From NCBI RefSeq assembly GCF_002696735.1, contig NZ_NZSL01000019.1: a stretch of 24,000 bases of DNA. One strand, written 5' to 3'. Shown one piece after another: positions 3,558 through 19,717 of the stretch. Position numbers and translations under genes: made by a program. This stretch comes from Methylophaga sp. Its GTDB lineage: Bacteria; Pseudomonadota; Gammaproteobacteria; Nitrosococcales; Methylophagaceae. Every line of letters begins with the position of its first letter. Position 1 is the stretch's first letter. The notes under the pieces are model-generated. The model ran no database searches. It saw nothing but the letters and a program-made list of their open reading frames with translations, and was not told the DNA's origin.

Positions 3558-4061
3558 ATGTCAGAAAAATATATTGAAATTGAAATGAAGCCTAAAGCTG
3601 GGAGAAGAGTTAAGCCTGCTCATGTTACAAAATACTCAACGCCACTGCCAACTCCCGAAGAAATAATGATAAGTGTTGGATTTTCTACCAATAATAAACT
3701 GCAACTTATTCAGCAAATAAGACGAGGTGTAGCAGTTTCTTCGCTATATGCACTGGCCGATAGACTAAGCATTGGCGTGAATGAAATGAATGAGATAGTC
3801 AATATTTCAGCAAGAACATTTACCAGAAGAAAGCGTGAAGGTGTGCTTCACGCCGATGAAACGGAACGCGTTTACCGACTTGCTGATCTCATGGCTAGAG
3901 CAACCGAAGTGCTGCATAGTAATGAAGATGCACAGCATTGGCTCAAAACTCCCAAAAAAGCATTGGGAGGTGAAACGCCTCTGAAACTGGCTGATACAGA
4001 ATTAGGAGCGAAAGAGGTTAAAGACTTACTGGGTAGAATTGAGCATGGTGTCTTTTCATGA
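3558..4061 (+). CDS. Xre/ParS/MbcA-type antitoxin (DUF2384 toxin-binding domain)
   Basis: The C-terminal half (TFTRRKREGVLHADETERVYRLADLMARATEVLHSNEDAQHWLKTPKKALGGETPLKLADTELGAKEVKDLLGRIEHGVF) matches the DUF2384 pattern. GGGG precedes the ATG. The stop overlaps the toxin start (ATGA). Confidence 0.85.
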   Translation: MSEKYIEIEMKPKAGRRVKPAHVTKYSTPLPTPEEIMISVGFSTNNKLQLIQQIRRGVAVSSLYALADRLSIGVNEMNEIVNISARTFTRRKREGVLHADETERVYRLADLMARATEVLHSNEDAQHWLKTPKKALGGETPLKLADTELGAKEVKDLLGRIEHGVFS

Positions 4062-4567
4062 CAGACATTACTGCTGTCCGAATTATTCAAAATCAATTAG
4101 CTTCAAAAACAGAGGTGATCAACGGTATTAAAGTTCCTGCAGCATTTACTGGAGAAGGTTCTAGAAAGTTTGGAGGAAGATGGAATTCTATTGGGACTCC
4201 AATAGTTTACACAGCTGGTACTCAGTCTTTGGCAATCTTAGAAGTTGTTGTTCATGTTGAATCTGAAAGACTGTTAGAGCACTATTCATTGTTTGAGGTA
4301 AGCTTCGATCAAAGTCTTGTATTAGAGCTTTCGCTCGATAGTTTGCCTGAAGATTGGCAGAGTGACCCAGCAGCGGAATCGACTAAAGTAATCGGTGATC
4401 AGTGGGTAAAACAAGCAGATTCTCTTATTCTACAGGTGCCAAGCACTATCGTTAGCGATACACCAAACTACATCATCAATCCTTATCATCCAAATTTAAA
4501 CAAGCTCAATATTATTGGGCCTATACCTTATCCCATTGATCCTAGAATTAAGCAGACCCGTTCTTAA
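4058..4567 (+). CDS. RES-domain toxin (NAD+-targeting, Res/MbcT/ParT family)
   Basis: GGRWNSIGTPIVYTAGTQSLAILEVVVH and LQVPS supply the R-E-S signature. The gene has a 4-nt overlap with the upstream DUF2384 antitoxin. Confidence 0.85.
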   Translation: MTDITAVRIIQNQLASKTEVINGIKVPAAFTGEGSRKFGGRWNSIGTPIVYTAGTQSLAILEVVVHVESERLLEHYSLFEVSFDQSLVLELSLDSLPEDWQSDPAAESTKVIGDQWVKQADSLILQVPSTIVSDTPNYIINPYHPNLNKLNIIGPIPYPIDPRIKQTRS

Positions 4568-6821: not shown

Positions 6822-6968
6822 TTATGCGGTTCTGTCACTATGTTTGTCTTTGTGCTTACGCTTCTCATCTACTCTGGTTGCATAGTTACCAAGGCAAATG
6901 AAAAACGCTAAAATTAGAACAGCACCTATTACTAATTCCGGCTTTATGTATTCTAAAATAGTCATCAT
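6822..6968 (-). CDS. Small membrane protein A2 (48 aa; one TM plus a basic tail). Not in the supplied ORF track.
   Basis: MMTILEYIKPELVIGAVLILAFFICLGNYATRVDEKRKHKDKHSDRTA. The start AUGAUGA overlaps the A1 stop and lies behind GGAGGAAAUGA. The architecture matches B2 at 16933-17031. Confidence 0.6.
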   Translation of the reverse strand: MMTILEYIKPELVIGAVLILAFFICLGNYATRVDEKRKHKDKHSDRTA

Positions 6969-7150
6969 TCATTTCCTCCGTCTCTAAACTTAATACCATA
7001 GTAAATCAAAACGCCTCCCAACAATATAGCAATGAAAGCGCTAGCCAGTGATTCACCACTATTAGCAAATGCTAACCCGATGAAACCTGCAGTAATGACA
7101 TTGGTGCCTACCTTAATGGAAGCTTCACCTGCGTCTTTCCTCATAGACAT
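6965..7150 (-). CDS. Small two-TM membrane protein A1 (61 aa)
   Basis: MSMRKDAGEASIKVGTNVITAGFIGLAFANSGESLASAFIAILLGGVLIYYGIKFRDGGNE. GGAGAA lies 6 nt before the ATG, directly after the structured leader. Confidence 0.65.
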   Translation of the reverse strand: MSMRKDAGEASIKVGTNVITAGFIGLAFANSGESLASAFIAILLGGVLIYYGIKFRDGGNE

Positions 7151-7335
7151 TCTCCGAAAATAAAAAAGGGAGAATGCCCCCTGAAGGGAATTCTCCCTTC
7201 AGGGTTGAGGTTAACTGCGTCCGTAGAAGCAGCAACATTATGTAAGATACCAACCGTAGTCAGTATCCGTTGAGCACAGCGTTAAAGCAGCTGTGGCACT
7301 TCAGGTACTTGAGTAATCAAGTACGCAGAATCAAT
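7151..7335 (-). promoter_or_regulatory. Structured 5' leader, copy A (five hairpins plus a terminator/antiterminator-like 3' end)
   Basis: See findings. Hairpins: GUACUUGA/UCAAGUAC, CACAGC/GCUGUG, AUACUGAC-UACG-GUUGGUAU and CCCUGAAGGGA-GAAU-UCCCUUCAGGG. The alternative pairing is GGGAGAAU...AUUCUCCC followed by U6. Copy A is paralogous to 17235-17430 and 19255-19460. Confidence 0.7.
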
Positions 7336-7341
7336 GACTTA

Positions 7342-7350
7342 ATAATAACA
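7342..7350 (-). promoter_or_regulatory. Extended -10 promoter element of leader A (TGtTATTAT)
   Basis: It aligns column-for-column with the -10 hexamers of copies B (TAATAT) and C (TATTAT), at the same distance from hairpin P1. The -35 element is weak. Confidence 0.45.
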
Positions 7351-7510
7351 TAATCCGCTTTTTACAGCATCTCTTGGCCTCCTGTTCATACTTGCGTGAT
7401 CACAAAGCTGGGATAACCTTAAATCTGGTATTCAGCCATAGTGAGTTAGTGGAGAATTAATAAAAGAACTTGAAGAACAATTTAGCTTTACACCCGCCAG
7501 CACGTCCCCC

Positions 7511-7959: not shown

Positions 7960-8178
7960 ATGTCGAGAAAAACGTTAATAGAACATTTAAATAATGAGTG
8001 TCTTACAGAGACATTCACTTTTTTTGGTGTGATGGTTTGGGCTAAGCCAGATGAACTGGAAGAATGGAAAGAAGTGTTTCATGTGCTGGTGGATGAAGGA
8101 GTGGTTGTTCCAGTGGAGCAAAAGATGCTGGGTATAGTTTATCGGTATGTAGGTGAATTTGACGCGGAGTTAATCTAA
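7960..8178 (+). CDS. Hypothetical protein (72 aa)
   Basis: ATG at 7960, 2 nt after the upstream stop: MSRKTLIEHLNNECLTETFTFFGVMVWAKPDELEEWKEVFHVLVDEGVVVPVEQKMLGIVYRYVGEFDAELI. The 94-aa track ORF starts too early, inside the upstream gene. Confidence 0.55.
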   Translation: MSRKTLIEHLNNECLTETFTFFGVMVWAKPDELEEWKEVFHVLVDEGVVVPVEQKMLGIVYRYVGEFDAELI

Positions 8179-8414
8179 ACATAACTAAAAAAGCCCCACC
8201 CTGTATAGGGCATAAAATGTTCTTTTATAGGGATAGTGGTTATGAATATTACCAATACATAAAGCATCTTTATATGGTCATTTAAGTGTGCTATATTGAA
8301 CTAAGAGAGGGTAGCTGGTTTGGTCAAGGAAGCCTGATCAGTTAAGGAGCAAAAAACCATGATGGACTGACTAGGCTGGTGTGATAAGCGTAGTCAGGAA
8401 GAGGAGTAGCGGAG

Positions 8415-8669
8415 ATGAGAAAGGTAAGTGCCGTCTTGTCTTCAGTGACTATTGGTATTACAGAGCTTAAGCGTAATCCGATGGTTGTTGTCGACGAATC
8501 AGATGGGGAAACTGTTGCTGTTTTAAACAGGAACAAAGCGGTGTTTTATGCGGTTCCCGCGGAAGCGTATGAGGCAATGATTGAGCGGCTGGAAGATGCA
8601 GAACTTGCTGCCCTTGTGCGTGCGAGGGAGCAACAGCCTCGTATAGAAGTGGATTGGGATGACCTATAG
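8415..8669 (+). CDS. stbD: Phd/YefM/StbD-family antitoxin
   Basis: ITELKRNPMVVVDESDGETVAVLNRNKAVFYAVPAEAYEAMIERLEDAELAALVRAREQQP is the classic StbD/YefM fold pattern. The gene overlaps the relE start by 11 nt. Confidence 0.85.
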   Translation: MRKVSAVLSSVTIGITELKRNPMVVVDESDGETVAVLNRNKAVFYAVPAEAYEAMIERLEDAELAALVRAREQQPRIEVDWDDL

Positions 8670-8946
8670 TTTAAGATTTACTGAAGACTCCAAGAAGGAA
8701 TGGGACAAGCTTGATGCGGGGATCAGAAAGAAGCTCGCAAAAAAGTTGAAAGATCGGCGTGAAAACCCTCGGGTACCGTCGGCGAAGCTTGTTGGAATGA
8801 AAGATTCATACAAGATAAAGCTTAGAGATGATGGTTATCGACTGGTCTATACGGTTGTTGATGAAACCATCACCATCGATGTAATTACTGTTGGTAAGCG
8901 TAATAAAAACTTAGTTTATAAGAAAGCATTAAAGCGAATAGGATAA
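8659..8946 (+). CDS. relE: RelE/StbE-family mRNA-interferase toxin
   Basis: MTYSLRFTEDSKKEWDKLDAGIRKKLAKKLKDRRENPRVPSAKLVGMKDSYKIKLRDDGYRLVYTVVDETITIDVITVGKRNKNLVYKKALKRIG aligns along its whole length with E. coli RelE as I remember it (LDFDERALKEWRKL...YKIKLRSSGYRLVYQV...VGKRERSEVY). Confidence 0.9.
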   Translation: MTYSLRFTEDSKKEWDKLDAGIRKKLAKKLKDRRENPRVPSAKLVGMKDSYKIKLRDDGYRLVYTVVDETITIDVITVGKRNKNLVYKKALKRIG

Positions 8947-8965
8947 ATTAAGGTTATTATCAATA

Positions 8966-9457
8966 TCACAAATCCTTTAGGTAGCGCTGTGACTCTCTGT
9001 TTTTCCAAGATTCTAATAGTCTGAGTTGAGCTGCTGTAAGATTATTGGACAGTTTGTCTAAAAGTAGATTGAGTTGGAGCAGGTCTTGGCTATCGTTGAG
9101 CCAATCATCCAGAACGATAAAGCTTGCCTGTTTGTCTCTAAGCAAACTATCAGCTATTAAATCAGCAATTGCTCTCGGATGAGTAGCTGCATATGCTTTA
9201 TCCCCATCAAAGACAATACCTAGGTTCTTTAAAACCTGGCCGCATTCCTCAATGCCATTACTTTCATATAAGCTAATGGTATTTACTTCAGCACCAATAC
9301 CAGCATAGAAACCACGCGTATATCCATTTTCTGAAAAAACGCTTTGAAAATGCCAATCACCAGAACCTGATGGGGATGGGATGTTAAGGGATGCTAGTCC
9401 ACTTAAATAGAACTTTGGTGAGGTTTGTTTTAGGTGAATCAAGGGATATACCTGCAC
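8966..9457 (-). CDS. Hypothetical protein (163 aa, GTG start)
   Basis: Clean ORF, no recognised family and no obvious SD. Its upstream region is only 67 bp from the left inverted repeat of the ISL3 element. Confidence 0.55.
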   Translation of the reverse strand: MQVYPLIHLKQTSPKFYLSGLASLNIPSPSGSGDWHFQSVFSENGYTRGFYAGIGAEVNTISLYESNGIEECGQVLKNLGIVFDGDKAYAATHPRAIADLIADSLLRDKQASFIVLDDWLNDSQDLLQLNLLLDKLSNNLTAAQLRLLESWKNRESQRYLKDL

Positions 9458-9755: not shown

Positions 9756-10130
9756 ATGAAAGAAGTCCAAGCGATTAATGCCTTTGCGGCAATTTCTCAA
9801 GAGACAAGACTTCGTATTATCCGGTTACTGGTGGTAACAGGAGCCAATGGATTGGCGGCGGGTGAGATAGGAAGCTCGCTCGGCGGTGTGCCATCGTCTC
9901 GGCTCTCTTTTCACCTCAGCCAGCTTGAACATGCTGGCCTCGTCGAAAAGCGACGAGAGGGACGCTCAATCATTTACAGCGCTATTTTCCCAGCACTGTC
10001 TGATCTCGTTGCGTTTCTAATGCACGACTGCTGTCAGGGTCACTGTGCCTACTGTGATAAAGCCATTGAGCTGTTTTCCAAGTGCGAAGGACGACCTACA
10101 TCAACTGAAAATGTGAACTTAAAAAAATGA
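9756..10130 (+). CDS. ArsR/SmtB-family metalloregulator with a C-terminal Cys cluster
   Basis: The winged HTH reads AISQETRLRIIRLLVVTGANGLAAGEIGSSLGGVPSSRLSFHLSQLEHAGLVEKRREGRSIIY. The C-terminal DCCQGHCAYC resembles the C-terminal As(III) site type of Acidithiobacillus ArsR rather than the helix-3 CVC site. Confidence 0.85.
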   Translation: MKEVQAINAFAAISQETRLRIIRLLVVTGANGLAAGEIGSSLGGVPSSRLSFHLSQLEHAGLVEKRREGRSIIYSAIFPALSDLVAFLMHDCCQGHCAYCDKAIELFSKCEGRPTSTENVNLKK

Positions 10131-11047
10131 TCCGATTAATTTCTTTCGTTGAATCCCATCTTGTGTGGTTCGTCATTGTTGTCGCTGGAATGGGATTAAT
10201 AATCCCTGAAACAGGAATATTCCTTGAGCCCTCTATTGGGTTATTACTGGCGTTGCTGATGCTCGTTATCAGCTTGACCTTCGATGCGCACGATGTACGG
10301 CTAGTACTTCGTAAGCCATCAAGACAGTTTTTGGCACTGGGTCTGGTCTATGGACCAATGTCGATCGCCGGATGGCTGACTGGCCGCCTATTTTTTGGGA
10401 GCGGCCCGCTGGCTGCTGGCCAAACCTTGCTTGGCACCCTGCCAACGGATGTTTCCTCTCCTCTTCTAGTGTTGATGGCGAGAGGCAATGTAGCGCTAGC
10501 TGCCGTTTTTAATGCAGTCAACACGGCGTTATCTCCGTTTATAGTTCCTTTCTTGTTTTTATCGCTGACAGGCATACAACTGGAGGTTCCTCTTGGCTCG
10601 ATTATCCTCGAATTGGTGCTGATTGTCCTCATTCCTACCGTCTTGGGTGTGAGCTTGCGTACAGGATTTCCGAAATTTTTTGCAAGGCATGATTCAGCTT
10701 ATGCGGGGCTTGGTTCAATTATATATCTCCTGATACTTCTCGCTGTGGTAGGTCCGAACGCAGAAACAATCATTGGTTATGGTTGGTACGCTTTTGTAAT
10801 TGCTGGAGCGGCCCTATGTCTAAACCTGATTGGCTACTTAGTAGGAATGGCTGCACGATTGCTAACCACTGATCGCAAAGAGGTAATCACATATCTATTT
10901 ACCGTGAGCAAAAAGGAATTCAGCATTGCTGCTGCCTTTGTAGCCGCATCCGGCCTGCCATCAGAAATAGCGATTCCAGCCACGTTTTTTGCAGTGATTC
11001 AAATGATTACCTCACCTATTGCGGCCAAGATTCTCGCAAGGGGCTGA
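10127..11047 (+). CDS. BASS/SBF (bile acid:Na+ symporter superfamily) permease, possibly a metalloid transporter
   Basis: 306-aa polytopic ORF. GTLPTDVSSPLLVLMARGNVALAAVFNAVNTALSPFIVPF fits the SBF signature region. It is translationally coupled to the ArsR gene (ATGA overlap). Confidence 0.7.
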   Translation: MIRLISFVESHLVWFVIVVAGMGLIIPETGIFLEPSIGLLLALLMLVISLTFDAHDVRLVLRKPSRQFLALGLVYGPMSIAGWLTGRLFFGSGPLAAGQTLLGTLPTDVSSPLLVLMARGNVALAAVFNAVNTALSPFIVPFLFLSLTGIQLEVPLGSIILELVLIVLIPTVLGVSLRTGFPKFFARHDSAYAGLGSIIYLLILLAVVGPNAETIIGYGWYAFVIAGAALCLNLIGYLVGMAARLLTTDRKEVITYLFTVSKKEFSIAAAFVAASGLPSEIAIPATFFAVIQMITSPIAAKILARG

Positions 11048-11079
11048 GAGCCTCTGGAGAAACGACTTAAGAAATTTTT

Positions 11080-12456
11080 ATGACTAGTCTACCTGTCAAT
11101 GTGTTGCAACTTAACAAGTATGACGTTTGGAATATTAAAGAGAGTGAGCATGACTATCATTTCCAAGTGGAAGCTAAAACTCCTATTGCTTGCGAGGAAT
11201 GCGGCGTAGAAGGTGAGTTCGTCAGGTTTGGAAAGCGTGATGTCGCCTATCGGGACCTCCACATTCATGGCAAACGGGTTACCCTCTGGGTAGTACGTCG
11301 CCGTTACACGTGCCGGGCCTGCGGCAAGACGTTTCGGCCCGCGCTCCCGGACATGGCGGATGACCATCGCATGACTCGCCGGCTATACAGCTACGTTGAA
11401 AAAAAGGCTTTCAATCACCCCTACGCCTATGTAGCCGATACCACGGGCCTCGATGAGAAGACCATACGCGACATCTTCAAGAAGAAGGCTGAGTTCCTGG
11501 CGATTTGGCACCGCTTCGAGACACCCCGCTGCCTGGGTATCGACGAGCTGTACCTGAACCGCCGCTACCGCTGCATCCTGACCAACTTGGAGGAGCGCAC
11601 CCTGTTGGACCTGTTGCCCGGTCGTCAGCAGGACGCGGTGACGAAGCGGCTCATGAGCATGACCGAGCGTGACAAGGTCGAGATCGTCAGTATGGATATG
11701 TGGAAGCCCTACCGCCGTGCCGTCCAGGCGGTGCTGCCACAGGCCCGCATCGTGGTCGATAAGTTCCATGTTGTGCGTATGGCCAACGAAGCCCTGGAAA
11801 AGATCCGCAAGGGGCTCAGGAAGGAGCTGACGGCCAACCAGCGACGAACCCTCAAGGGTGACCGGAAGATCCTGCTGAAGCGGGCTCACGACGTTTCAGA
11901 CCGCGAGCATCTCATCATGGAAACATGGACAGGGACCTTCCCCCAGCTCCTGGCAGCCTACGAGCACAAGGAGCGGTTCTACCACATCTGGGACTGTGCC
12001 ACCCGGCGTGATGCCGAGAAGGCACTGGCTGCCTGGATTGACGACATCCCGCAGGGACAGAAGAAAGTCTGGAAGGATCTTGTCAGCGCCGTCAGCGAAT
12101 GGCGTGAGGAGATGCTCACCTACTTCGAGACCGACATCCCGATCACCAACGCCTTCACGGAGTCGATCAATCGGCTGGCCAAGGACAAGAACCGCGATGG
12201 CCGGGGCTACTCATTCGAAGTGATGCGGGCCCGGATGCTATATACCACCAAGCACAAGAAGAAGGCGCCGCAGACCAAGCAATACCCCTTCCTGGGCAGG
12301 GCTACCATGACCTACAACATGGGCCTGCCCGATCCCGAGCAGAACTTCGGCGTCGATCTATCAACCTTCTGGCAGGACTATGCATTTGGATGGGTTTCAG
12401 TGCCCCTTCAACCAGTTAATCCGGATACCCATAGTTATTTGAGTGTTTTAATCTAG
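11080..12456 (+). CDS. tnpA: ISL3-family transposase
   Basis: N-terminal zinc ribbon (CEECG...YTCRACGKTF) and a DDE_Tnp_ISL3 core (LGIDELYL..., VSMDMWKPYRRAV, VVDKFHVVRMANEAL, TNAFTESINRLAKDKNRDGRGY). The ORF reads through the right inverted repeat and stops 26 nt outside the element. Confidence 0.92.
   Translation: MTSLPVNVLQLNKYDVWNIKESEHDYHFQVEAKTPIACEECGVEGEFVRFGKRDVAYRDLHIHGKRVTLWVVRRRYTCRACGKTFRPALPDMADDHRMTRRLYSYVEKKAFNHPYAYVADTTGLDEKTIRDIFKKKAEFLAIWHRFETPRCLGIDELYLNRRYRCILTNLEERTLLDLLPGRQQDAVTKRLMSMTERDKVEIVSMDMWKPYRRAVQAVLPQARIVVDKFHVVRMANEALEKIRKGLRKELTANQRRTLKGDRKILLKRAHDVSDREHLIMETWTGTFPQLLAAYEHKERFYHIWDCATRRDAEKALAAWIDDIPQGQKKVWKDLVSAVSEWREEMLTYFETDIPITNAFTESINRLAKDKNRDGRGYSFEVMRARMLYTTKHKKKAPQTKQYPFLGRATMTYNMGLPDPEQNFGVDLSTFWQDYAFGWVSVPLQPVNPDTHSYLSVLI
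12404..12430 (-). repeat. Right inverted repeat of the ISL3-family element
   Basis: The reverse complement GGGTATCCGGATTAACTGGTTGAAGGG matches the left inverted repeat. From memory, it resembles the GGGTATCCGGA-type ends of ISPpu12-like elements. Confidence 0.8.
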
Positions 12457-16590: not shown

Positions 16591-16847
16591 TGGTTGAGCT
16601 AATTCGGATGAATCAGAAAATTCCAAGAGTCGAAGATCCTGAGCTTTATGAATATCTGTCTAAATTCAATGACAGAGGAAGAGCATATCAAGCACGAAAG
16701 CTTATGCTTTTAGGTTTGGTGCAACTAGGAAAGTTAAATGGTGGTGAGTTAGATGTGATGCCCCATCCTTCTGGCCAGAAAGATATCAGTATCGAAAAGG
16801 ATGAGTTTGATCTCATCGCGGATGCCGGCGTGGGTGAATTGTTTTGA
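16590..16847 (+). CDS. Small acidic protein (85 aa), candidate ParR-like adaptor
   Basis: TAATG overlap with the parM-like gene. The position is equivalent to parR in parMRC loci. There is no sequence-level recognition. Confidence 0.5.
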   Translation: MVELIRMNQKIPRVEDPELYEYLSKFNDRGRAYQARKLMLLGLVQLGKLNGGELDVMPHPSGQKDISIEKDEFDLIADAGVGELF

Positions 16848-16857
16848 CAGTCCCAAA

Positions 16858-16899
16858 CAAAAAAGCCCCAACCTTATTGCAAAGGTAGGGGCTTTCTAT
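16858..16899. terminator. Bidirectional rho-independent terminator (parM operon / leader module B)
   Basis: AAAAAAGCCCCAACCTT-ATTGCA-AAGGTAGGGGCTTTCTATT. There are U-rich runs on both strands. Confidence 0.75.
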
Positions 16900-16932
16900 T
16901 ATCTCCGTGGAAATAATCTCTTAATAGGGTTT

Positions 16933-17031
16933 TTAGTCTTTACGGTGCTTTTTGTGTTCCTGATAATAAGCAATCGAGAACACTATAGCGCACACAAGAA
17001 AAATGATGCCAGAAGCTATTGTGAGGTTCAT
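16933..17031 (-). CDS. Small membrane peptide B2 (32 aa; TM plus basic tail). Not in the ORF track.
   Basis: AAGGAGGAGG, 5 nt, then ATG: MNLTIASGIIFLVCAIVFSIAYYQEHKKHRKD. The start overlaps the stop of the upstream frame (AAUGA). It resembles the A2 tail EKRKHKDKH. Confidence 0.6.
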   Translation of the reverse strand: MNLTIASGIIFLVCAIVFSIAYYQEHKKHRKD

Positions 17032-17234
17032 TTTTCCTCCTCCTTCGTTTTAGGTTTTTCAGAACATGGTGCCTCAATTATACCAAGGAGCCAGGTACAT
17101 ACTGAAAACATTATTGGCCAAATAAAATCGCTAAATCATTTGTCATTGACCAGCACACTAATCAAAGCAGCAAGAAATACAGCAATAGCTATTTTCCTGA
17201 TGTCATCTTGTACCGATTTAAAGTTAAGCCTCAT
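17028..17234 (-). pseudogene. B1: a 68-codon small-membrane-protein frame with an in-frame TGA at codon 33
   Basis: MRLNFKSVQDDIRKIAIAVFLAALISVLVNDK, then TGA (17136-17138), then FSDFIWPIMFSVCTWLLGIIEAPCSEKPKTKEEEK. Its position and its coupling to B2 are the same as for A1/A2. Confidence 0.5.
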
Positions 17235-17430
17235 AGGCACTCTCCAAATAAAAAAGGGAGAACGCCGCCCCTGAAAGGAGAAACATTCTCCCTTCAGGGT
17301 TGAGGTAATCTGCCACCTTAGTAACAGTTACATTTTGCAGGATACTAACCGAAGTTAGCATCTATTGAGCACAGCATTTAAGCAGCTGTGGCACTTCAGG
17401 TACTTGAATACTCAAGTACGCAGAATCTGT
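17235..17430 (-). promoter_or_regulatory. Structured 5' leader, copy B
   Basis: It aligns with copy A along its whole length, with long identical blocks (e.g. the 44-nt run GATTCTGCGTACTTGA-to-CTGCTT, interrupted only by three changes in the P1 loop). P3 becomes GAUGCUAAC-UUCG-GUUAGUAUC. The terminator-like pairing is GGGAGAA...UUCUCCC plus U6. Confidence 0.7.
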
Positions 17431-17436
17431 AATTCA

Positions 17437-17465
17437 ATATTACGCTTAACCGGAAATGATGGCAA
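17437..17465 (-). promoter_or_regulatory. Sigma70-type promoter of leader B
   Basis: TTGCCA (17465-17460), 17 nt, TAATAT (17442-17437). Confidence 0.6.
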
Positions 17466-17466
17466 T

Positions 17467-18693
17467 TTACCCCTTGAGTACAATTACTCTATCAGTAGAT
17501 ATGCCTTTAATCGGTCCCTCATCTTGTATGGCACCTATTAGACGCAGCTCGTTTAGAAGGTCTGAAGGACTGTCCGTGTAGCTTCTGAATGTAGTGGGGT
17601 ATTTCACTTTTATGGTATTGCCTTCCTGCTTGGCATATTCGGACGTGATACGTTTCTTTTGAATATCCACCTTGAGTCTGGCCACAAAGTTTTTCGCAGT
17701 GATTTCGTCATCATGCTCTGGCGGATAATCATCAATATTCTGTGGTGGTTCTTCCATCTCAGGTGGCATGGAGTCTATTTGATTTGACGGTATAGGCTCT
17801 ACTGGAGCGTGACTGCTTTGTTTCGGAGCTGGTTCTTTTGCTGCTTGTTGTGGTTTAACAGGCGTGGTTTTAATGAATTCACCAGTCTCTTTGTCAATCT
17901 GCTCACTTGATGGGGCCGGATTGTCTCTAGGTTTGTTGGCCTTTTCGGCTTGGATCAGTGCTGCTTCAAAAGAGATTTCATCACGCAAAGTAGATGTGGC
18001 TCTGACAATGATCGAGTACAACGGATTGTCTTGGATTTTATGGCCACCCGCTAGAATATCTAACATGCAGTCCATAAGCTCATGGTCACCATATATCCAC
18101 TCAATGCCTTCTGTGGGGACAATATCCCTGATATGAAGTACGGTGCTTGTATAGGACAGTGAGCGTGTAATCCCTGGTACTTTTCTCATGCGATAATGAT
18201 TGAATTCATCGATACGGTGTTTCCAGCACTGCCACTCACCGGCAGGTTTATCATTTTTGGCAAAGCCAATGATCTTCACACCCAGCATTTGCCCACCAAA
18301 GTCTCGAAGGAGTGCGGCAACAAATAAGCCATATGTCCAACACTCACCTCGATGTGATATTTCCTCTGGCTTACATTTTAGTGGCAGCAGTGTTCCCAGT
18401 CGAAGCTTTAAGGTCAATGCTACACGCTTAATAGCAACTTCAATTGCGCCACCCTTTTTTGCGTACTCCCCTTCATGACCAAACGGACGAAGCTGAAGCA
18501 TTTCTGCCAGACGCTCTATTGCCGGCAAGTAATAGCTATCAAAATATGCTCGTGTACAACCGGCATCATTGCGGATCTTTTTAATCAGCAATGAATGAGG
18601 GGCAAGTAGGTCTTTAGCAGTAAGAAATGGGATTCCATCAGCAGGAATAGATGTTGATGGTGCTAGTAAAGTGGTTTTTCGACGGCCAAACAT
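17467..18693 (-). CDS. TraI_2/MOBH-relaxase-like protein (408 aa), with apparent substitutions in the catalytic motifs
   Basis: GGAGAA precedes the ATG at 18693, and the longer track ORF would run through a terminator. The N-terminal ~250 aa align, from memory, with the ICE relaxase family PFL_4751/TraI_2 (LLAPHSLLIKKI...YLPAIERLAEMLQLRPF...GGAIEVAIKRVALTLKLR...ECWTYGLFVAALLRDFGG). A P/Q/E-rich linker and a small C-terminal domain follow. Confidence 0.55.
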   Translation of the reverse strand: MFGRRKTTLLAPSTSIPADGIPFLTAKDLLAPHSLLIKKIRNDAGCTRAYFDSYYLPAIERLAEMLQLRPFGHEGEYAKKGGAIEVAIKRVALTLKLRLGTLLPLKCKPEEISHRGECWTYGLFVAALLRDFGGQMLGVKIIGFAKNDKPAGEWQCWKHRIDEFNHYRMRKVPGITRSLSYTSTVLHIRDIVPTEGIEWIYGDHELMDCMLDILAGGHKIQDNPLYSIIVRATSTLRDEISFEAALIQAEKANKPRDNPAPSSEQIDKETGEFIKTTPVKPQQAAKEPAPKQSSHAPVEPIPSNQIDSMPPEMEEPPQNIDDYPPEHDDEITAKNFVARLKVDIQKKRITSEYAKQEGNTIKVKYPTTFRSYTDSPSDLLNELRLIGAIQDEGPIKGISTDRVIVLKG

Positions 18694-18793: not shown

Positions 18794-18824
18794 AAAAAAA
18801 GCCTCACTTCAATGAAGTGAGGCT
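18794..18824 (-). terminator. Rho-independent terminator after the 140-aa gene
   Basis: Minus-sense AGCCUCACUUCA-U-UGAAGUGAGGCU followed by UUUUUUU. Confidence 0.75.
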
Positions 18825-18831
18825 GGCTTGT

Positions 18832-19254
18832 CTACAGGTATTGTAGCTTTTTAACATCGAACGTTACCGATGCAGGTTCAAATCTTGGAGATTCAACCGG
18901 AATACCACTTCCATTAATTTTCTCGATTTTGTACCAGGCATGCTGGCTGTCATCGAAAAAGTGCGAAAGACGTACTTTTTTCCCTAGCTTATTCATACAT
19001 ACGGTCGTGTTGTAACTAAACTCACTCAAATCGCCTTCAGGCTTCCAAGTAGTTATGTTCCGTGACGGTTGCAACAAGGCAGGGAGATTACGACTTAACA
19101 ACAACTTAAATGGCACAAAAAACATTCTCGACATTACCGTTTGGTGTGTGTCGGGATCATATTTACCTTGTCGTTGAAGTGAGGCGATTACTTTTTGGTC
19201 GTAGCAAAAAACAAAAAAGGCAATCGCCAGTAACGTAGGAATAATATCTTGCAT
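18832..19254 (-). CDS. Hypothetical N-terminally anchored membrane protein (140 aa)
   Basis: The N-terminal TM segment is IIPTLLAIAFFVFCY. GAGGAGAAAGAAAG precedes the ATG. It lies directly downstream of leader copy C. Confidence 0.65.
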   Translation of the reverse strand: MQDIIPTLLAIAFFVFCYDQKVIASLQRQGKYDPDTHQTVMSRMFFVPFKLLLSRNLPALLQPSRNITTWKPEGDLSEFSYNTTVCMNKLGKKVRLSHFFDDSQHAWYKIEKINGSGIPVESPRFEPASVTFDVKKLQYL

Positions 19255-19460
19255 CTTTCTTTCTCCTCAAAGTGATAAATACAACCCATAGAGAAAGATC
19301 GCCCCCATAAGGAGAGATAAATCCCCTTATGGGTTGATGCTATCCACGCTTCCTTGGAAGCGTGGTTATTAGATTACAACCGGTCATTGAACGGATGTAA
19401 TTGAGCGCAACGTATAGTGGTTGCGACACTTCTCGCAGCTAATGTATTAGCTACAAAGAT
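19255..19460 (-). promoter_or_regulatory. Structured 5' leader, copy C (divergent)
   Basis: Same hairpin order as A and B, with compensatory changes: P1 GUAGCUAA/UUAGCUGC, P2 CGCAAC/GUUGCG, P4 CCACGCUUCC-AA-GGAAGCGUGG, P5 CCCAUAAGGGGA/UCUCCUUAUGGG. The single-stranded GAAGUG, CUCAA and UCAACCC are conserved. Confidence 0.6.
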
Positions 19461-19466
19461 AGGATG

Positions 19467-19495
19467 ATAATATCGGCTAAATCGTCACTAATCAA
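19467..19495 (-). promoter_or_regulatory. Sigma70-type promoter of leader C
   Basis: TTGATT (19495-19490), 17 nt, TATTAT (19472-19467). Confidence 0.55.
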
Positions 19496-19717
19496 GCTGA
19501 TGCCATGCTGCAATGAGTCAAAAGTATGAACCGATAGACACTTGTTTAAGAGCTTTTTACTTATTGTGCGCTCATTACTTGCGCTATTAGAAAAGCGTTA
19601 TAGACTTAATGTAAGTTCATCCTGAGTTAAAACGGACATCTTGGTGCATCTTCCTTGGCATACATGTCTTTTTAGTTGCTCCATGCACGGGTGAGAACAA
19701 CAAAAAAGGACCTAAAA

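Follow-up and report, generated by a model that had tools for sequence, protein, structure and literature searches.

A family of predicted RNA leaders with a Shine-Dalgarno-pairing helix on marine conjugative elements

Three copies of one leader on a Methylophaga element

A stretch of 24,000 nt from contig NZ_NZSL01000019.1 of Methylophaga sp. (assembly GCF_002696735.1), which we refer to as the window, carries on its minus strand three copies (A, B and C) of a structured leader, and copy C, located at 19464..19255, is the one from which this analysis started. The window belongs to a conjugative element or megaplasmid. It encodes a MOBH relaxase, a ParM-like PRTRC-D protein, a tyrosine recombinase and a transfer protein of the type found in integrative and conjugative elements (TIGR03755), TraG_N, TraU and TraC are present in related loci, and its nearest DNA matches are two Methylophaga plasmids. 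Methylophaga pinxianii TMB1265 and M. thalassica IOM01 are carriers of such plasmids. Along the minus strand the order is leader C, a gene for a 140-aa protein, a terminator-like hairpin, the relaxase gene traI, leader B and a cassette of small peptides, while leader A is found 10 kb from this region, in front of a second small-peptide cassette (Table 1). A covariance model of the leader and nhmmer searches gave exactly three copies in the window.

Read 5′ to 3′ from 19495 to 19255, the minus strand presents a putative promoter, a short U/C-rich tail, five hairpins (P1 to P5), a pyrimidine-rich stretch, the Shine-Dalgarno sequence (SD) GAGGAG and an ATG; the covariance model matches copy C over 19289..19464 with 145 bits. 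An earlier note on this DNA had described copy C as a strongly diverged version of A and B that keeps the order of the helices and the single-stranded motifs between them. All these elements are present in the sequence, and a MAFFT alignment of the three copies gives the same helix order. The compensatory changes that the note listed relative to A and B were also found, namely three double changes in P1, which in addition shows one U-A to U-G change, two in P2 (from CACAGC/GCUGUG to CGCAAC/GUUGCG) and two in P5. P4 had been called a perfect 10-bp hairpin; its 10-nt arms are indeed perfectly complementary, but because a 2-nt loop cannot close, the helix is effectively of 9 bp with the loop CAAG. 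A terminator scan agreed that copy C is devoid of the U6 tract present in A and B. As for the proposal that the leader is not tied to one gene family, three families do follow it, yet all of them are small proteins with an N-terminal membrane helix encoded at fixed positions of the element backbone.

Table 1. Leader features, as predicted from sequence, and neighbouring genes in the window
Feature	Position	Strand	Remarks
Leader copy C (C-type)	19255..19464	-	5′ tail, P1-P5, anti-SD, distal arm, SD; ends directly before start codon
Sigma-70-type promoter, copy C, TTGATT-17-TATTAT	19467..19495	-	-10 ends ~12 nt before P1
P1 GUAGCUAA-UACA-UUAGCUGC	19435..19454	-	Double changes in 7/8 pairs (family)
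J1/2 GAAGUG	19427..19432	-	Nearly invariant; candidate partner, P2 loop CACU (19419..19416), H-type pseudoknot
P2 CGCAAC-CACUAUAC-GUUGCG	19406..19425	-	100% of cells paired; double changes in 3/6 pairs
CUCAA linker	19405..19401	-	Read from copy C sequence
P3 UUACAUCCG-UUCAAUGAC-CGGUUGUAA	19374..19400	-	One U-U mismatch; double changes in 9/9 pairs; in minimum free energy fold
P4 CCACGCUUCC-AA-GGAAGCGUGG	19344..19365	-	Double changes in 6/7 pairs (family)
UCAACCC, P5 CCCAUAAGG/CCUUAUGGG, then GGC	19333..19304 (P5)	-	Read from copy C sequence
Conserved UCAA and P5 CCCAUAAGGGGA-UUUAUC-UCUCCUUAUGGG	19304..19337	-	Double changes in 6/11 pairs; in minimum free energy fold
Anti-SD GAUCUUUCUC	19300..19291	-	Within P6 region 19258..19300
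Distal arm UAUGGGUUG	19290..19282	-	Followed by UAUUUAU; partner of P5 5′ arm
SD GAGGAGAAAG	19268..19259	-	UCUUUCUC pairs with GAGAAAGA (P6; minimum free energy fold)
140-aa protein	18832..19254	-	N-terminal membrane helix; first gene after leader C, start codon at 19254
Strong terminator-like hairpin and U7	18800..18824	-	11 pairs, 6 G-C; between 140-aa gene and traI
traI, MOBH-family relaxase (TraI_2)	17467..18693	-	NF041494, TIGR03760; PF07514 in homologues
Promoter, copy B, TTGCCA-17-TAATAT	17437..17465	-	Begins 2 nt after traI stop codon
Leader copy B (B-type)	17235..17429	-	174 bits (covariance model); terminator-like hairpin and U6; anti-SD:SD helix
B cassette	16933..17234	-	
B1, shortened to 32 aa	17136..17234	-	After leader B
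B2, 32-aa one-helix peptide, basic tail	16933..17031	-	Intact
Extended -10 TGTTATTAT, copy A	7342..7350	-	No good -35; aligns with copy B -10
Leader copy A (A-type)	7145..7334	-	174 bits (covariance model); terminator-like hairpin and U6; anti-SD:SD helix
A1, 59-aa two-helix protein	6965..7144	-	Directly after leader A
A2, 48-aa one-helix peptide, basic tail	6822..6968	-	Overlaps A1; A1 stop/A2 start is ATGA

Conservation of the fold and the strand that carries it

Homologues of the leader were collected with nhmmer and a covariance model built from 14 sequences, covering plasmids, contigs with homologues of the 140-aa gene and loci of TraI homologues. The search for further homologues that the earlier note had suggested yielded 37 distinct sequences, from Methylophaga plasmids and marine metagenomes; TraI homologues with identities down to 48% led to more distant elements, which carry leader copies too. 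A metagenome scan with a pattern that fixed only the P2 core pointed to 19 loci, 15 of which were confirmed by the covariance model. In species-representative genomes, a three-motif pattern recovered Methylophaga and only four matches elsewhere, about the number expected by chance, and viral contigs gave no matches to the leader. The leader family is real, though within the reach of these searches it is restricted to a single lineage of marine conjugative elements. Three syntenic positions recur within this lineage: before a gene of 133-142 aa and traI (C-type), directly after traI (B-type) and before a pair of peptides of ~60 and ~45 aa (A-type). In several metagenome contigs (L027, L036, L039 and L044) a C-type leader with its 140-aa gene is followed directly by an A-type leader with its cassette, with no traI between them, and in L010 the 140-aa gene is detached from traI; the leader-gene modules thus appear to have been shuffled as units.

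Double compensatory changes were found in 31 of the 41 base pairs, in 226 cells of the alignment of the 37 distinct sequences. Overall, 89.6% of the cells can pair, compared with 37-52% when the 3′ partners are slid by one to three columns, and on each of five measures all 500 column shuffles fell short of the observed value. Since the large alignment was fitted to the covariance model, its bias was checked with two approaches that do not depend on it. RNAalifold run on a plain MAFFT alignment of three sequences recovered P1-P5, with 14 pairs showing double changes; with nine sequences it recovered P1-P4 and a competing terminator-type pairing instead of P5, again with 14 double-change pairs. 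Minimum free energy folds computed sequence by sequence, with no alignment, reproduced each of the hairpins P1-P5 in 35 to 38 of 38 sequences. When folded as RNA, copies C, A and B gave z-scores of -7.0, -8.5 and -7.6, respectively, and none of 200 shuffled sequences folded as well. The compensatory changes of copy C, on which the earlier note had based its view of the element as a folded nucleic acid, are therefore genuine, and the wider family confirms the conserved shape.

The stems and the linkers of the leader differ in what they conserve. P3 and P4, often capped by UNCG-type tetraloops (UACG, UUCG), covary freely and so look like scaffolding, while the conserved bases sit in the linkers, where GAAGUG, CUCAA and UCAA-CCC are nearly invariant. 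The GAAGUG motif is complementary to the first bases of the P2 loop (CACU, CACUUC or UGCUUU), and this pairing fits 88.7% of the cells versus 35-57% when slid. Because double changes are limited to U-A to C-G in two sequences, we keep the resulting H-type pseudoknot as a proposal. An all-against-all analysis of column covariation for tertiary contacts was swamped by subfamily structure and suggested only an extension of P1 by 1-2 bp.

Several lines of evidence indicate which strand folds and where the leader lies in its transcript. The alignment contains 155 G-U pairs and 20 A-C pairs, which makes the mRNA-sense strand the folding one. With RNA energies, folding favoured the sense over the antisense strand in 37 of 38 sequences (-63.8 versus -54.5 kcal/mol), and with DNA energies the two strands were nearly equal (-29.9 versus -28.0 kcal/mol); the covariance model scored 145-174 bits in sense and at most 17 bits in antisense, a difference that arises partly by construction. 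Finally, a TTGxxx-17-TAxxAT sequence occurs at a fixed distance from the leader in every C-type copy and in the B-type copies of Methylophaga, and 53% of all copies reach a promoter score of at least 9 out of 12, compared with 0.8% of background windows. Judged from these sequence features, the leader is an mRNA-sense RNA of ~200 nt that forms the 5′-end of its predicted transcript and starts a few bases before P1.

Two short sequences lie near these putative promoters. CGCAAGT, a heptamer, has only two occurrences in the window, both on the minus strand (7390-7396, upstream of A, and 19577-19583, upstream of C); the count is not above chance and only the positions are suggestive. In the more distant elements L015, L021, L022 and L024, ACGCAAGTT abuts the -35 box of the C-type promoter. 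CGCAAGT/ACGCAAGTT may be an operator, an activator site or part of an origin of transfer (oriT).

Predicted sequestration of the Shine-Dalgarno sequence and a competing fold

Behind P5 and the GG(C) that trails it lie 8-12 nt with complementarity to the SD region of the downstream gene, which give a further predicted helix, P6, exemplified by GGCAUUCUCC/GGAGAAUGUC in A, UCUUUCUC/GAGAAAGA in C and GAUCUCUC/GAGAGAUC in the group of loci L015 and L021. The duplex between each anti-SD and its own SD had a mean energy of -13.7 kcal/mol (-12.0 kcal/mol in copy C), compared with -10.4 kcal/mol for pairs taken across subfamilies and -6.3 kcal/mol for shuffled anti-SDs. P6 also shows compensatory variants (CAUUC/GAAUG, CGUUC/GAACG and GAUCUCUC/GAGAGAUC), with A-U, G-U and G-C at the same position. 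This helix is one more indication that the conserved structure is RNA of mRNA sense. In the structural ensemble of the full-length leader, P5 forms with a probability of 0.98 and the SD is paired with a probability of 0.84. P6 would thus hide the ribosome-binding site once the leader has been fully made, so that the default state would be translation off. The earlier account of the 3′-end had proposed an alternative pairing, which holds; the more general conserved feature, SD sequestration, was absent from it.

This alternative pairing involves the purine-rich 5′ arm of P5 (AAGGGAGA or AAGGGGA), which mimics an SD and has two possible partners, the proximal 3′ arm of P5 and a distal one in the anti-SD region. 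Distal pairing produces an 11-14-bp terminator-like hairpin ending in U6 in A and B, and CAACCCAUA:UAUGGGUUG in C. Terminator-type hairpins followed by a U-tract are found in A, in B and in some C-type leaders (L010, L015, L032 and L039), and are absent from copy C and from most other C-type leaders. In copy A the two folds are nearly equal in energy (-21.9 kcal/mol for the terminator-type fold and -21.7 kcal/mol for P5). When the transcript was folded up to a point before the SD, the P5 5′ arm paired with the proximal partner with a mean probability of 0.67 and with the distal one with 0.30, the latter being dominant in 9 of the 37 sequences. The distal arm changes together with the 5′ arm (UAUGGGUUG with CAACCCAUA, UCUAGUU with CCCUAGA, CUUCCA with UGGAAG), so that the alternative pairing of copy C is borne out by the other members of the family.

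Neither Rfam nor the literature contains this RNA as far as we could find. Rfam 15 gave no family matches at the gathering threshold over the whole window and, when searched at E ≤ 10 over C and A, returned noise only (best E = 0.4, 18.5 bits versus a threshold of 45.6); no description of this RNA was found in the literature. On sequence grounds, the leader constitutes a new, previously uncatalogued family of predicted cis-acting, SD-sequestering leaders with a switch, and it is unusual in having an elaborate conserved upstream module and in being used three times on one mobile element.

We consider it probable that the leader acts as a cis-acting RNA switch with a default off state, whose three paralogous copies would gate the 140-aa gene/traI operon and the two cassettes of small membrane proteins. 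By sequence analysis, the leader hides the SD and has a competing fold; the sensing step and its effector are what we infer beyond this. The switch would consist in the choice of the P5 5′ arm between its proximal and distal partners. Distal pairing could either free the SD on the completed mRNA or stop transcription at the U-tract during synthesis. The P1-P4 module, perhaps with the pseudoknot between GAAGUG and the P2 loop, would receive the signal, which might be a protein, a small RNA or a small ligand. In this way, the three copies would place the 140-aa gene/traI relaxase operon and the two cassettes under one post-transcriptional control.

Several points weigh against this proposal. The distribution of the leader is narrow, being limited, within the reach of the searches, to the one lineage described above. 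In A and B both alternative folds look repressive, one by termination and the other by a hidden SD, which means that activation of these copies needs something beyond what can be read from the sequence. Pair counts taken from the model-fitted alignment lean towards the model, and in this alignment the C-type P5 rows are one column out of register, although they pair perfectly by eye. The putative pseudoknot is backed by sequence conservation, while covariation is almost absent. No promoter could be recognised for some A-type copies, which follow immediately on an upstream gene such as csrA in L022, so the leader can also be part of a longer transcript. Finally, transcription start, termination and switching are all deduced from sequence.

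The closest functional parallel that we found is in the gonococcal genetic island, where RNA switches in the 5′ untranslated regions (UTRs) of traH and parA occlude the SD (Ramsey et al. 2015 as cited in PMC8716806; Callaghan et al. 2021, PMC8716806); in the account given there, the activator of these switches is unknown (PMC8716806). Both systems consist of cis-acting stem-loops within the 5′ UTR that occlude the SD along with the start codon and have an alternative fold that would release the site, and both recur on a single island encoding a MOBH relaxase and a type IV secretion system. They differ in that the gonococcal switches have one or two stem-loops and are known from a single species, whereas the leader comprises five hairpins plus P6, family-wide covariation and conserved linkers. 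The parallel is a functional one drawn from published descriptions. The gene yaf is located upstream of traI in the gonococcal island (PMC6736028), which makes the 140-aa gene its positional analogue. Given its resemblance to the RNA switches of the gonococcal secretion-system island, the covariation of the leader offers a firmer handle for finding the triggers of such switches.

With riboswitches the leader shares a conserved multi-helix domain with covarying stems and invariant junction bases, as is generally found in sensor domains, and mutually exclusive pairings (P5 versus the distal pairing, and P6 over the SD), as is generally found in expression platforms; the competing folds are close in energy and the downstream platform is variable, being terminator-type in A and B and SD-sequestering in all copies. 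The differences are that the genes, a relaxase and small membrane proteins, suggest no ligand, that there is no Rfam match and that both folds of A and B look repressive. A more far-reaching idea, to which we attach only tentative value, is that P1-P4 and the pseudoknot form the sensor domain of a new riboswitch-like class, whose effector would be a small molecule, an ion or a protein encoded by the element, and whose P5/anti-SD switch would co-ordinately license the relaxase operon and the two cassettes. If so, a single RNA fold in three copies would gate conjugative transfer post-transcriptionally in this lineage. Accounts of how conjugative elements are controlled usually deal with transcription factors. 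The leader would add to them a conserved, triply used RNA fold that keeps operon and cassettes translationally silent, and the few structured RNAs known to be associated with conjugation gain a well-supported family with it.

One candidate effector that we considered is CsrA, since the SD and the P5 5′ arm of the leader contain GGA purine stretches, as do leaders regulated by CsrA/RsmA. Homologues of csrA (PF02599) are encoded downstream of the integrase in four related loci (L013, 6336-6551; L020, 6278-6529; L022, 13586-13783; L024, 14478-14684), and in L022 the csrA stop codon marks the start of an A-type leader. A tblastn search for csrA in the window gave nothing, and the corresponding stretch there is occupied by insertion sequence (IS) and arsenic-resistance genes, as read from their translations. 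Leaders under CsrA control have at least two conserved GGA motifs, as a rule placed in hairpin loops, and one of these overlaps the SD. Unlike the situation in CsrA-regulated leaders, the conserved GGA of P5 is base-paired and not placed in a loop, and CsrA would not explain P1-P3. The GGA at the apex of P4 belongs to a covarying stem, for which reason the P4 apex was dropped as a CsrA site, and about a third of the members have lost it. Thus, with csrA on four related elements and none in the window, CsrA is no more than a lead.

A simpler explanation, which we regard as unlikely, is that the leader is a constitutive damper and stabiliser without any sensing, in which P6 permanently holds down translation of the relaxase and of membrane proteins that may do harm, and the 5′ hairpins shield the mRNA from RNases. 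Thermodynamically, the leader always ends in P5 with the SD sequestered, no effector was found, and low expression would be sensible for products that are small membrane proteins and a DNA-nicking enzyme. For such a role, however, P6 alone would suffice, and the five ordered hairpins, the nearly invariant linkers and the co-varying second partner of the P5 arm exceed the needs of stability.

The small hydrophobic peptides of the cassettes bring to mind type I toxin-antitoxin systems, a reading that we consider rather improbable. A2 and B2 (32-48 aa, one membrane helix and a basic tail) would be toxins whose translation is coupled to that of A1 and B1, with the leader keeping their mRNA inert up to its processing and an antisense RNA as the remaining component of the system. 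As in the leaders of hok/mok, fst and tisB, a long and highly structured 5′ region hides the SD of a gene for a small hydrophobic peptide; the small open reading frames (ORFs) overlap, the A1 stop being joined to the A2 start in ATGA, which suggests translational coupling, and the fact that both folds of A and B are repressive would also fit. Against this, the same leader precedes the 140-aa gene and traI operon, which do not look toxin-like, neither an antisense RNA nor an antisense promoter-terminator pair was seen over the leaders, and no toxin family was matched.

There is also a slim chance that A and B are mainly small RNA genes, each consisting of a promoter, an RNA of ~165 nt and a U6 terminator, which would act in trans and whose read-through into downstream genes would be incidental. 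Their own promoters and their terminator-like hairpins with U6 favour this idea, but a usable U-tract is missing from most C-type copies, most nascent transcripts favour P5 over the terminator fold, and the anti-SD co-evolves with the SD of the adjacent gene, which points to action in cis. In addition, the complements of UCAACCC and GAAGUG gave nothing specific as a target in the window.

It is very unlikely that the leader works as folded single-stranded DNA during conjugation, be it as an oriT-like relaxase site, a priming site or a single-strand promoter, although it adjoins a MOBH relaxase gene on a conjugative element and several copies on the same strand precede different genes. Frpo of the F plasmid is a single-strand promoter in which a long imperfect hairpin on the transferred (template) strand rebuilds the -35 and -10 boxes. 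The leader, in contrast, folds on the mRNA-sense strand into five short hairpins and has an ordinary duplex promoter upstream. In the gonococcal island, the MOBH relaxase relies on shape and not on sequence when it recognises a hairpin (PMC6736028). However, the oriT of that island is a single inverted repeat of ~32 nt, 3 nt 3′ of nic in the yaf-ltgX intergenic region (PMC6736028), which argues against an oriT made of five short hairpins, present three times per element and with a 3′ helix that pairs with the SD. Such a helix, co-evolving with the SD, has no role in DNA, and the excess of G-U over A-C pairs and the near equality of both strands under DNA energies speak against it as well. The DNA-level readings were rejected on the pair bias, the sense-strand fold, P6 and the three-copy layout.

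That an overlapping protein-coding frame explains the conservation, which the earlier note had named as a way of being wrong, can be dismissed with near certainty: gene callers did extend the B1 ORF into the leader (starting at an ATG inside it, with an 87-aa product at 7943-8206 in L017) and a 42-45-aa ORF overlaps A and B in the window, but stop codons occur in all three sense frames in 36 of the 37 distinct sequences (the exception having no stop in a single frame), insertions and deletions between copies are not multiples of three (7 nt at the P5 apex between A and B, for example), the short ORFs of A, B and L017 lie in different frames relative to the downstream gene, substitutions are pairwise compensatory, and no antisense ORF of at least 60 aa covers C or A. 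Recognition of the RNA would improve the annotation of these plasmids, where the B1 ORF is now run into the leader.

Genes downstream of the leaders and cargo of the window

No match to Pfam or NCBIfam was found for the 140-aa protein or for the other proteins that the leaders would regulate, and the 140-aa family comprises only 12 clusters. An AlphaFold model of this protein (predicted local distance difference test score, pLDDT, of 77) shows a transmembrane helix and a small beta domain, and a fold search of the Protein Data Bank with the model gave no match below E = 0.4. The terminator-like hairpin that follows the gene implies that transcription of traI from the predicted leader-C promoter needs read-through, or that traI has a separate promoter. 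The arms of this hairpin happen to be CACUUC and GAAGUG, the same hexamer as in the J1/2 motif.

The A and B cassettes are paralogous, each encoding a ~60-aa two-helix protein and, overlapping it, a peptide of 32-48 aa that has one helix and a basic tail; homologue searches with A1 gave only three clusters. Intact homologues of the B cassette encode proteins of 61 aa and 36 aa. In the window, B1 ends after 32 codons, compared with 61 in L017 and L002, and L034 is nearly identical but reads on past the stop. B1 is thus probably a pseudogene in this element, judging from its sequence, and B2 is intact. An ORF of 157 aa on the plus strand (16801-17274) runs antisense through the B cassette and is probably spurious.

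Neither tRNA genes nor tandem repeats were found in the window, and a G-rich stretch at 8001..9000 showed nothing unusual on reading, with no repeats and plus-strand ORFs only. The cargo is a mosaic (2035-2847, 9756-12456, 3558-4567 and 8415-8946). From their translations, we recognised an IS3-like transposase, ArsR and an ACR3-type arsenite pump, with a further transposase after them. Next to a DUF2971 gene stands an Xre-antitoxin/RES-toxin pair, these names being taken from identical annotated genes in L011 and from a Pfam match. Finally, a pair of plus-strand ORFs at 8415-8946 resembles, as read from the sequences, a candidate Phd/YefM-RelE pair.

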